Virus record (IMG/VR): IMGVR_UViG_2529293141_000023
DNA from: a virus
Taxonomy: Duplodnaviria; Heunggongvirae; Uroviricota; Caudoviricetes
Strand: one strand, 5' to 3'
DNA length: 19,068 bases
This document shows positions 15,601 to 18,600 of this stretch, one piece after another. Every line of letters begins with the position of its first letter. Position 1 is the first letter of the stretch. Made by a program: the position numbers.

Positions 15601-18600
15601 AAAAGACGCGGAAGGTTTTAAGCATGAGTCACCTCCTGACGGATACGGGCGACAAAAATAAGATGTGCGTGCGGCAGCTGGGCGCGTGCTTCGTGCTCAG
15701 TGGCAGCGGTAACGGTGAATATTGCAATGCTGTCTGTCAGGCACTGCATAAAGCGCTAGGTGAATTTATTCAGGTTGTGCGAGTCCCGCCCTTGCGGGTG
15801 TGTGATATGATTTCTCATAGCTGCCTCGATACTCTTGCTATCGTTGGTGGTCAGAGGCTGCGAAAGGACGGCAATCCTTTTCAGCCTCGTTTGCATTGAG
15901 TGATAAACACTCAACTGGATTCCAGTATAATCACCAAGTGGAATCCACTTCAAGCGTTTTGTTTTGGTCTTTTTCGTGTATACTGGATTCCAGTAATCAC
16001 AAAGGGAAGCAGAAATGGAAAGAGACCATATCAATAACAAATCACAGAAATTACAGGCTCGCGCCCCGCATGAAGTTGTTGAGGCTATGGAGCAAGTAAA
16101 AGAAACAGGCGAGAGCACTGCGCAATTTATCGTTACAGCCATGCGAGGCGAGATCAAACGCCGCCAGCGCCGCAAGGCCAAAGAATCAGAATAATCACTA
16201 TCAGCGCCGTGGTGTGAGGTACTACGGCGCATTGCTTTACAGGGCAGCAGCATGAACAAAAAGTACCAATCCATTACAGATATTTTTGCCGAACAACGAA
16301 GACAGCTTTTGCACCGCATACTTGAGCGCCAACTGGAACTGAAACGCGCTAAAGAGATATCAGAACCCGAAGAGTTAACGCCTCTTCCCGGAGTGAAAAA
16401 ACACCCACAAAAACGATTTGCCCTTGAAGATTTTGTCGAGAAATACCCACGGCGGTTAAAAGCCACTAAAAACCGACCGCCTGGCTGATAGCCTTGTCCA
16501 CCAGCTACACTCATGGCATAGTTGGTGATGCGCTTGATTTCCTTTATCTCCACTGGCGACCCTTTCGTGGTCGCCTTTGTTTTGCCTGCCATTCCTGCAT
16601 CATGCAAATATTCGCGCCGTACAGAGCCACCAGCGCGATAATTTGATAAAACCTCCTCTAAGTATTGCTTAACGTGTTTCATACGCTCAGCGGCGAAATG
16701 GCTCACGATATGGCGCATGTAATCAAACTGATCGCTATTCAGCAGAGCAAACTTATGTTCACGCTCTCCGTGTTGATTGGTTTTTAATCGCTCCGTTTGA
16801 AACGGAAGGATACCCAGTTCACGCAATCCGGTTTTGTGCTTCTGAATAAGCGAATAAAGGCTTTTGTGCTTTATGCCGATGCGTTCAGCAAACAGGCGGG
16901 AATCAATACGCGACTCTGCTTTGTGGCGAATCAATATATCGTTCTGGCTGATTTCAGGCTGAACGAAGCCCTGCCCCTGTACGGGCACATTCGGACGTTT
17001 CATTGAAAACTCCTGCTATCGAATCAGGTTTAGTGCTGGGGGAGAATATCCCCCTCCCAAAAGATTATTACGCGGCGTTGTTGCGAGAAGCATCAATACG
17101 CTGGTTAATCCATTCGTCGACTTCACTTTCAATAAAAGCCACGGAGCGGGAACCAATTTTTACCGGTTTAGGGAAACGCCCCAGGCTGATCAGGCGATAA
17201 ATCCATGCGCGACCGTAACCAGTACGGCGCATAACCTCAGAAAGACGGATGAATGAATTGTTATTAGCCATTTATCAATCTCCTTAATGTTGACGCGAAA
17301 ATCCCCTCCTGTGGCTTAGCAAGAGTTTTATTTGCGTCAAATTACGAACACGACAAAAACCACAACATGAAAACATGTTGTGGTATTGCATAAGATAAAT
17401 TCAGATTGTTTGGTTGGTGGTTGGTATGCTCCAGCAAGGTAGAGCTATTCCCGCTTTTCGGCGGGGTCACACGATTAGGCGTGACGTCCAGTAGTTTTAA
17501 AGAGCGCCCTTTTTCAGGGCATGGTGGGCAGGCAAGAGAGCAATTGCGCTTTGTCAGCGCTCCGCAGCCTCATTGGTGAATCATTACATGCATTGTAAAG
17601 GTGCATGTATCCCTATTCTTTCCTGCATCAGGAAAGCACCAAAGGCTGTTAAAGAGCATCCAGCTTTTCAGCTGCGTAGAAGACTCCATCTTCGTTGTTA
17701 CAAGGAGCGCCGTCCATACATGATGGGGTAACTGCGTGAAAAACCATCTGTAAGGATATTACCTGTAGCTTTCCGTGTACGTTAGTATACATCTGTATAC
17801 TTGTCCAGTCGTTTTTATGCACATACACCAAACTTGCCGTGCACCACGTTACCGCCCTGTTCCAGTGAGTCCATATAGTCGGCGTACCACTGGAGCATCT
17901 CCCGCCGTCCGTCCAGGTATTGCGCGTGATTGTATGTGCCACGGATCGAGTTTTTATCGACGTGCGCCAGCTGCGTTTCTATCCACGCGGAGTTATAACC
18001 CTGCTCATGCAAAATCGTACTCATGGTATGCCGGAACCCATGACCAGTAACGCGCCCTGCATAGCCAATACGACGAATAAGCACGTTCATAGCCATTTCA
18101 CTCATCGGCTTACTGTGCTGTATTCGACCAGGGAAAATAAACGGATACTGCCCCGTCATGTGTTTTAACTGTTCCAGAATAGCGATCGCCTGTTCTGAAA
18201 GTGGCACGCAATGAGGACGGCGCATTTTCATTCGTTCTTTCGGCACTTCCCACAGACGATTATCAAAATCAATCTCCTGCCACTCTGCCTGCCGTAATTC
18301 ACCTGGGCGAAGTCCTGTAAGAATCAACAATCGCATACCCAGCTTGACGATCTGGCTTCCGGTGTACGTATTAAAAACGCGGAAAAATTCCGGTAGCTCA
18401 TCAACTTTCAGATACGCGTAATGCTCTTTTTTGTGTGGTGCAAATGCGCTTGCCAGATCAGGAGCGGGGTTATATTCAGCGCGTCCGGTAATTATTGCGT
18501 ACCGGAACACTTCGCCACATCGCTGGCGAACCTTACGCAATTTTTCAGTTGCGCCACGGTCATTAAGACGGGATAGAACCGCGAGCAATTCCATCGGCTT

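Follow-up and report, generated by a model that had tools for sequence, protein, structure and literature searches.

In the plasmid pMV158, repB is controlled at its promoter by CopG, a ribbon-helix-helix (RHH) repressor of ~45-60 aa, and additionally by the antisense RNAII, which covers the first gene's ribosome-binding site. The immI region of phage P22 (Mnt/Arc, Pant/Pmnt, sar, ant) has a small RHH repressor gene divergent from the repressed operon, operators over overlapping back-to-back promoters and a cis-antisense RNA against the ribosome-binding site of the first gene. Among phage satellites, the divergently encoded master repressors Stl of the Staphylococcus aureus pathogenicity islands (SaPI) and Rpr of Gram-positive phage-inducible chromosomal islands (PICIs) silence the satellite replication operon until a helper phage acts, whereas for Gram-negative PICIs it is unclear whether a global repressor exists, and AlpA is described as activating ORF3 and itself (PMC6092414). 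Here, we analyzed the region 15897-16194 of a 19,068-nucleotide stretch of DNA assigned to the Caudoviricetes (IMG/VR record IMGVR_UViG_2529293141_000023, hereafter the window), which lies between two transcription units of a putative PICI of Escherichia coli. Our results suggest that a 59-aa protein of the YlcI/YnfO family, encoded in this region, is an RHH repressor acting at three operator sites (O1 to O3) over the leftward promoter (P_L) of the replication operon and the rightward promoter (P_R) of its own gene.

With its predicted repressor and antisense RNA, the island resembles P22 immI in all the features named above, its regulated operon belongs to the same Bro/Ant/Icd world, and the predicted beta strand of the 59-aa protein is in register with that of Arc. 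However, the sequence homology is not significant, and the island has three separate 11-bp sites where P22 has one 17-21-bp operator, a single RHH gene without a Mnt-type tetramerisation domain, a satellite replication operon instead of an antirepressor as the target, and a repressor gene nested antisense in a long open reading frame (ORF). With pMV158 it would share the double control of replication genes by an RHH repressor and a small antisense RNA, the predicted small RNA (sRNA) being comparable in role to P22 sar or RNAII; CopG, in contrast, is co-transcribed with repB and acts at one 13-bp pseudo-symmetric element, whereas the island repressor is divergent and has three sites. Stl and Rpr have only the divergent layout in common with the island, as they are larger helix-turn-helix (HTH) proteins relieved by helper anti-repressor proteins, while no anti-repressor is known for the 59-aa protein.

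An earlier note on this DNA had proposed three palindromic operators that overlap both a leftward and a rightward promoter. All three sites are present exactly at the positions it gave, and they are the sole matches to STGGAWTCCAS in the whole 19-kb window (expected 0.02 ± 0.14; 0/200 shuffles reached three). A repeat finder reported ACTGGATTCCAGTATA (15914-29) and TATACTGGATTCCAGT (15979-94) as mirror images (16 nt, 94% complementary), so that each of the two divergent TATACT -10 hexamers is fused to one operator, as O1+TATA and TATA+O3, respectively. O3 always begins with CTG and not GTG because two of its bases are shared with TATACT, and this may make it the weaker site. P_L is predicted to drive the operon that leads from the Icd/Kil-like gene through DUF4222 to the primase. 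Overlap with the leftward promoter was borne out for O1 and O2. On the rightward side, conservation points to the promoter at O3 and not to the TAAACA/TATAAT pair further upstream, whose -35 has no counterpart in aligned relatives and which may provide a second rightward start in this element. The P_R -10 itself falls below the promoter-scan threshold, because it lacks a -35.

For comparison, one genome per species was scanned, which yielded 60 loci. In ~55 of these, the 135 bp ahead of the ATG align to a common scaffold, caaGGTG-N5-CACtataa ... aaGTG-N5-CAC(g/t)TCAA ... gTATACTG-N5-CAC, and the loci come from more than 20 genera across Enterobacterales, including Escherichia, Serratia, Yersinia, Xenorhabdus, Pectobacterium, Proteus and Morganella. 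The centre of O3 is located 27 bp upstream of the ATG in 54/55 loci, and the centres of O2 and O3 are 45 bp apart in 50/55. The P_R -10 keeps a fixed position (TATACT in 42/55 and TATAAT in 6/55, together 48/55), and a P_L -35 of the form TTGA[ACG]G, found in 46/55 loci, always abuts O2. While the sites of the window are palindromic, as the earlier note had it, the symmetry is confined to the outer GTG...CAC in most classes of relatives; together with the inversion of O1 in some classes, this suits a symmetric dimer. The loci show two P_L architectures, with O1 and O2 either 22-26 or 35-36 bp apart and an unchanged total distance between leader hairpin and ATG; L019-L025, L027, L030-L034, L036-L038, L044, L047, L048, L054 and L055 are set apart from all other loci in this respect, and the same operator class (e.g. 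GAAATAC, GAATCGC) occurs in both. Three loci with a ylcI homologue have lost or truncated the scaffold and are probably decayed or rearranged islands: L014, in which a long ORF takes the place of the upstream region, L026, with O1 only, and L039, with no O3 and a divergent C-terminus.

The N5 core varies between elements and is common to the three sites of one element; GTGAATCGCAC, for example, represents a heterologous operator class that differs from that of the window. Across 34 non-redundant loci, and with shared descent left in, O1 and O2 agree with O3 of the same locus in 6.26 of the seven central bases, compared with 4.02 ± 0.17 after permutation of O3 (0/10000). The core is also correlated with residues 9-17, the predicted DNA-facing beta strand of the 59-aa protein, in a partial Mantel test controlling for residues 18-52 (r 0.40, 0/5000, again including shared descent), while the converse partial correlation is 0.17. 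Written as strand and core, the classes pair KSQKLQAR with GGATTCC or GGACTCC, KSQKMSAR with GGCACCC, KSQQLNAR with GAATCGC, KSQMTTVR with GAAATAC, KSLQVSVR with GAACACC, KSQALKAR with GTGGCCC and KSKKLEAR with GTCAGCC. Predictions from this mapping were borne out in three further, independent E. coli elements, namely L067 (KSQQLNARF with GAATCGC), L071 (KSQALKARV with GTGGCCC) and the model PICI EcCICFT073 (KSQALKARV with GTGGCCC). Where several islands reside in one genome, no two of them have the same operator class, with at most 5/7 core bases in common in 10 pairs from six genomes. Hetero-immune elements would be expected to show this pattern, which is not significant here (P ~0.23; L005/L010/L042, L004/L041, L025/L028, L023/L044, L032/L048 and L036/L045/L056). 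Taken together, the scaffold, the concerted change, the strand-core correlation and the three fitting E. coli elements support the reading of the earlier note, in which a small repressor regulates its own gene and acts through operators placed on divergent promoters.

These data also bear on the possibility that another factor, such as AlpA, the Rha/Bro-domain protein, the primase/initiator or a host protein, binds the sites, and that the 59-aa protein has a different role, for instance in packaging, like the cos-adjacent YlcI/YnfO proteins known from lambdoid prophages. Bro-network proteins can indeed be repressors (e.g. CapR, cited in PMC10111431), and ylcI of E. coli K-12 lies beside cos/nohD of the DLP12 prophage, outside any regulatory module. 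However, the core tracks the beta strand of YlcI and not the rest of the protein, and the sites keep fixed positions relative to the ylcI start codon. Moreover, one operator class recurs with widely differing AlpA, integrase and primase proteins (GAAATAC, for example, with AlpA of 29-71% identity), the primase and Rha domains being unrelated or absent in some cases, and neither the Rha domain nor the downstream orf78 is conserved in the family. We therefore regard binding by another factor as improbable.

As to the fold, for which the earlier note had suggested a structure prediction to decide between RHH and HTH, the evidence favours RHH. The predicted layout comprises a beta strand at about residues 9-17, helices at 19-28 and 35-58 and a turn at G32-E33-S34. 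The AlphaFold2 monomer (pLDDT 84) shows both helices but has short helices instead of a strand at residues 8-16; the strand of RHH proteins normally forms in the dimer only. A G-x-S/T/N turn between helix 1 and helix 2 is a motif of the RHH fold, and it is matched by G32-E33-S34, with E33 invariant and the G and S/T positions conserved in an alignment of 35 sequences. In an hhalign comparison, KSQKLQARAPHEVV aligns with KMPQFNLRWPREVL of Arc (E 0.0015 for a single comparison, probability 17%) with the beta strands in register, placing K12, Q14 and R16 of the 59-aa protein on Arc Q9, N11 and R13, which we take to be the base-contacting residues. This register and the strand-core correlation lend indirect support to a dimer whose beta ribbon would enter the major groove at the repeated sites. 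Searches of Pfam RHH families at gathering score returned no match for the protein (best PSK_trans_fac, 16 bits vs 28.3), sub-threshold matches among the 35 family members were to PSK_trans_fac (7), CB_ParB_C (4) and HicB (1), and no HTH family matched. A profile search of PDB sequences gave nothing meaningful, Foldseek against the PDB gave nothing, and hhalign of the YlcI family against CopG was not significant. Overall, an RHH fold is likely for the modelled protein, but not proven.

Structural similarity to solved RHH proteins was found, the best matches being the antitoxins MazE4, ParD2, TacA and VapB12 as well as omega of pSM19035. This raises the question of whether the protein is primarily an antitoxin-like partner of the Kil/Icd-like cell-division inhibitor, or a ParG/omega-like centromere binder for a plasmid state, instead of a transcriptional switch. 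The regulated operon does open with a putative toxic Kil/Icd-like peptide, and omega-type proteins recognise short repeats irrespective of their orientation. However, the two genes are divergent, unlike the co-transcribed pairs of type II toxin-antitoxin systems, and the protein ends in a short basic tail, EIKRRQRRKAKE, with no C-terminal toxin-binding extension. Omega, which is also centromere-binding, occupies 7-10 contiguous heptads, whereas the island has three spaced 11-bp sites only, each on a promoter element, and no partition ATPase is encoded nearby. We consider an antitoxin or centromere-binding role quite improbable, and a repressor of the divergent promoters remains our preferred reading.

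The 59-aa ORF, called unannotated in the earlier note, turned out to be listed in RefSeq, where the identical protein is WP_000439004.1 ('YlcI/YnfO family protein') on a 99.8% identical E. coli chromosome. Its existence as a gene is well borne out: it scores 72.3 bits against NCBIfam NF041551 (cut-off 30), with residues 9-50 spanning the full 42-position profile, and 95 bits against phrog_949. It has homologues in 108 clusters (including Escherichia, Salmonella, Klebsiella, Serratia, Yersinia, Xenorhabdus, Pantoea and Pectobacterium), and 15 columns of the 35-sequence alignment are invariant. Both the GGAG ahead of the ATG and the protein length are conserved among ylcI homologues. The family is compact: at 50% identity, it makes up 93 clusters in a set of 1.84 billion proteins. 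No match to the protein was obtained by tblastn in 50,697 phage records. The namesake of the family, YlcI of K-12, gave no significant hhalign match to the family alignment (probability 1.3%, E 0.04, 21 columns), the aligned part being confined to the strand and helix 1 (R-x-P...). Its gene in DLP12 (L062, 6252-6446) is divergent from nohD and adjoins a lambda-like cos site, with no three-site scaffold upstream; the family name thus spans at least two genomic contexts. Longer YlcI-like proteins (~100-110 aa) are encoded in Yersinia pekkanenii (L056, 532-864) and E. coli ATCC 25922 (L072, 666-971), and in these a helical insert separates the RHH core from a second copy of an EIKRRQR-like basic tail.

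The island adjoins a tRNA-Gly gene in E. coli. On the 99.8% identical chromosome (L001), the minus strand encodes an integrase and an AlpA-type HTH protein and, beyond the control region, an Icd-like protein, three small ORFs, DUF4222, a DUF927 primase, SSB, ProQ/FinO, PerC and a Q-type antiterminator, while the plus strand encodes the YlcI/YnfO family protein and a hypothetical protein. The same gene organisation has been described for Gram-negative PICIs (PMC6092414, PMC10111431), and the order of int, alpA, ylcI and the operon from Icd-like gene to primase is conserved among relatives. The gene order in EcCICFT073 (NC_004431.1 1377930-1388654) is int, alpA, a hypothetical gene and, encoded on the other strand, ylcI, followed by an Icd-like gene, DUF4222, primase, SSB, PerC, capsid and decoration genes, and the sites of this island are GTGTGGCCCAC for both O1 and O2 and CTGTCCCCCAC for O3. 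By gene order, the island in the window is classified as a PICI of the EcCICFT073 type. The 511-bp control region is matched in 1813/5426 complete E. coli genomes, with at least 80% of it covered in 492. A literature search for YlcI/YnfO or RHH proteins in PICI or P4-like regulation found nothing; most subscription journals lay outside this search, and a prior description is possible.

Table. Predicted features of the control region and its surroundings in the window (aa, amino acids).
Feature	Position	Strand	Remarks
Operator O1, CTGGATTCCAG	15915-15925		Overlaps the predicted P_L start and the final 2 bp of the P_L -10; exact match
Operator O2, GTGGAATCCAC	15938-15948		Fills the P_L spacer and abuts the P_L -35; exact match
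Operator O3, CTGGATTCCAG	15983-15993		Fused to the rightward -10 (TATA-CT-G...), over the predicted start of the repressor transcript
Leftward promoter P_L	15924-15953	-	-35 TTGAAG 15953-15948, 18-nt spacer, -10 TATACT 15929-15924; promoter scan
P_R -10 TATACT, putative repressor-gene promoter	15979-15984	+	Directly abuts O3; read from sequence
Second rightward promoter-like site, TAAACA-16-TATAAT	15904-15931	+	O1 in spacer; 10/12 promoter-scan matches
YlcI/YnfO-family ORF (59 aa), predicted RHH repressor	16015-16194	+	ATG, AGGGAAG 6 nt upstream
Hairpin right after the repressor stop	16204-16230	+	Weak T tail; terminator scan
orf78 (78 aa)	16252-16488	+	Downstream of the repressor gene; no family match
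Intrinsic terminator of the ylcI-orf78 transcript	16555-16575	+	7-bp stem with 6 GC pairs, then TTTGTTTT
Predicted cis-antisense sRNA, ~78 nt	15818-15895	+	Hairpin A 15820-15851, hairpin B 15854-15888, T-containing tail
Icd-like ORF (43 aa)	15618-15749	-	C-terminal part of Kil/Icd-like protein; NF033153, 45.8 bits; RefSeq-annotated
20-codon ORF, MRNHITHPQGRDSHNLNKFT	15756-15818	-	First ORF after P_L; nested in frame at the end of the long ORF
Long ORF (415 codons)	15756-17003	-	Rha/Bro-type N-terminus (Phage_pRha, E 6e-5); AGGAG 7 nt before ATG
Hairpin, GGGAGGGGGATATTCTCCCCC	17035-17062	-	G/C-rich, no T tract; between alpA stop and the ribosome-binding site of the long ORF
alpA (67 aa)	17068-17271	-	Directly upstream of the long ORF, same strand; Phage_AlpA, 73 bits; proposed origin of read-through transcription

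On the rightward transcript, a sequence nearly identical to the hairpin behind ylcI follows the gene in EcCICFT073 as well, and the hairpin is a possible attenuator ahead of orf78. The latter found no match by tblastn in the 60 related loci and is not conserved beyond close relatives. Terminator scans show the intrinsic terminator, which lies inside the long ORF, as terminator-like on the plus strand and not on the minus strand. The Rfam int-alpA RNA motif (RF02996) occurs between integrase and alpA in L007, L019, L023, L033 and L034 (42-61 bits); in the window, searches at gathering score gave no match to it.

The Rha-like protein mentioned in the earlier note proved to have a Rha-type N-terminal domain, but it is the N-terminal part of a frame that continues antisense through the whole region. 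This long ORF starts 64 nt past the alpA stop and crosses orf78, ylcI, all of the operator sites and the leader of the leftward operon before reaching its TAG (15758-15756), which is in frame with the Icd-like ORF, the first annotated gene of the leftward operon. The same TAG splits the Kil/Icd-like ORF into pieces of 20 and 43 codons, the shorter of which we read as its truncated N-terminus. In EcCICFT073, there is a Tyr codon at this position, an intact Icd-like ORF of 66 aa and a frame of 433 uninterrupted codons, which begins immediately behind alpA and closes together with that ORF. In the window, the TAG represents a nonsense mutation of the island or, alternatively, a variant that is tolerated. 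The same minus frame is open in ~52/58 loci over 100-570 codons, compared with 7-60 codons for the next-best frames in most loci. Resampling the synonymous codons of ylcI from neighbouring genes, in three phases, leads to an expectation of 36 antisense stops across ylcI in 33 lineages, whereas none was observed (stop-free in 33/33 vs 10.4 expected; P < 1e-5), and the other two antisense phases showed the expected number or an excess of stops. Within the 186 nt before the ATG, the long frame contains 14 stops in 33 loci, 30 of which are stop-free, vs 55-171 in the other five frames. These patterns argue that selection holds the minus frame open through ylcI and the control region. In PGAP annotations, the frame is repeatedly split at ylcI, and each half is listed as a BRO-N, 'ash' or Icd-like fragment. 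At the hairpin between alpA and the long ORF, AlpA-dependent read-through might pause or be attenuated.

The selected minus frame also raises the question of whether the 59-aa ORF is no gene at all, its conservation being a by-product of the overlap and the repeats being promoter or RNA features, and the third codon positions of both frames coincide, so that substitution patterns separate them poorly; but the antisense translation over ylcI is Ser/Cys/Arg-rich and of low complexity, whereas the plus frame has a confident two-helix model, a curated family match and a conserved GGAG and length, and its residues co-vary with DNA motifs outside the ORF, all of which makes this highly improbable.

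The arrangement recalls the immunity region of P4 (PLL/PLE, vis, eta/kil, CI RNA with seqA/seqC), where a Bro-network ORF begins upstream of a constitutive internal promoter and contains kil in the same frame; translation of eta occurs only from the late promoter further upstream and prevents termination (PMC10111431). The two have in common an AlpA-family gene, a Bro-network ORF, a nested in-frame Kil-like ORF and a primase operon, and for both, upstream transcripts are proposed to override immunity (for P4, PMC10111431). The nested in-frame arrangement of the eta/kil type was found in the window, EcCICFT073 and most relatives. BLASTP of the Icd-like ORF against the P4 'cI' ORF gave no alignment. 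Unlike the island, P4 has neither a YlcI homologue nor a protein repressor at PLE, whereas the island has the predicted RHH protein and three operators at the PLE-equivalent promoter, with the repressor gene antisense inside the eta-like ORF. P4 also matches the RNA families C4 (RF01695; 74.9 bits) and isrK (RF01394; 60.8 bits), of which no match was found in the window or 11 related loci.

Instead, the island may encode an antisense sRNA, complementary to the leader, Shine-Dalgarno sequence and start codon of the first leftward ORF. The loop of its 5' hairpin complements the Shine-Dalgarno sequence and the stem covers the start codon, while the 3' hairpin has a T-rich tail in most loci and a weak one in the window. 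The structure was drawn by hand and then tested against slid and shuffled controls: 89% of cells are paired vs 31-44% with partners slid, 13/17 pairs are compensatory, and 0/500 shuffles reached the score; RNAalifold on the leader alignment gave hairpin fragments only. Non-Watson-Crick cells are G.U 49 times on the plus strand RNA vs three times on the minus strand RNA, which assigns the structure to the rightward RNA, and the hairpins fold with z-scores of -2.6 to -7.4 in six elements. In most of 33 loci, a TAnnnT hexamer precedes the CAT by 4-10 nt, the candidate in the window being an extended -10, TGaTATGAT (15803-15811); no convincing -35 was found for this promoter. Rfam searches of the whole window at gathering score, and of 15200-16600 at E up to 10, yielded chance snoRNA/miRNA matches only, with no C4 or isrK. 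These features suggest that the sRNA is a likely second layer of control on the Kil/Icd-like leader.

Based on these results, we propose the following model. The 59-aa RHH protein, presumably as dimers, would bind the three 11-bp (G/C)TG-N5-CA(C/G) sites. Occupation of O1 (at the P_L -10/+1) and O2 (in the spacer, at the -35 edge) would shut P_L, so that neither the Kil/Icd-like gene nor the DUF4222-primase replication operon is expressed from the integrated island, whereas occupation of O3 over the P_R -10/+1 would result in negative autoregulation of the repressor gene, whose transcript is predicted to end at the intrinsic terminator. The 5-bp core and residues 11-15 of the beta strand, above all 12 and 14, would vary together to give immunity-like specificity classes. 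The plus strand RNA, antisense to the first leftward ORF at its leader and ribosome-binding site, would end in a terminator hairpin just before O1. Escape could be brought about by helper-induced, AlpA-dependent minus-strand transcription along the translated Rha/Bro-to-Icd-like frame, running through the repressor gene and the operators, and this convergent transcription would also silence ylcI. Such read-through across the repressed region would resemble the way in which PLL/eta transcripts override immunity in P4. AlpA of Pseudomonas aeruginosa is a processive antiterminator (PMC7969949, PMC9371919). We put the probability of the model as a whole, that is, an RHH repressor of a PICI with three operators that silences the replication operon and limits its own promoter, an antisense RNA and AlpA-dependent escape, at about 0.72.

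Several points weigh against this model. The loci are related by descent and our tests leave it in, so that the P-values overstate independence; despite this, the concerted change of three sites per element is hard to explain otherwise. In the KSQTVAARV class (E. coli L063, L068, L069 and L070), the sites are GTGTTGAACAC and GTGTTAAACAC with none at the P_R -10, a third site lies ~33 bp upstream, immediately following the GTCAA of the leftward -35, and the C-terminus of the protein differs (REVEYRQRR); the autoregulation geometry is therefore not universal. A -35 for P_R was sought in the window and its relatives with no convincing result, and the activity of this promoter is uncertain. The namesake K-12 YlcI stands beside a lambdoid cos site without such operators, and the stop codon in the Kil/Icd-like ORF means that the island of the window may be partly decayed. 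Finally, binding, the sign of regulation, the transcription starts and the escape route are deduced from sequence and comparison.

An RHH repressor on divergent promoters is of a known kind. What is unusual here is that it is likely to be the missing PICI repressor, with co-varying specificity classes and a gene nested antisense in a selected frame. Tentatively, and with less confidence than in the model itself, this would be the long-sought maintenance repressor of Gram-negative PICIs including EcCICFT073, diversified into a dozen or more co-evolving classes, combined with a convergent-transcription switch via an eta-like frame and with a new sRNA in place of the P4 CI RNA. Satellites of the EcCICFT073 type are common in E. 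coli, and the 59-aa protein and its three sites give the question of a PICI repressor a concrete and cheap test. The pairing of residues 12 and 14 with the 5-bp core would amount to a natural recognition table for RHH proteins and offers orthogonal repressor/operator pairs. An open frame maintained antisense to a functional gene and a promoter region would represent a clean case of opposite-strand selection on synonymous sites, and ties PICI regulation to the eta/kil logic of P4. The specificity classes, in turn, could explain how several such islands coexist in one genome.

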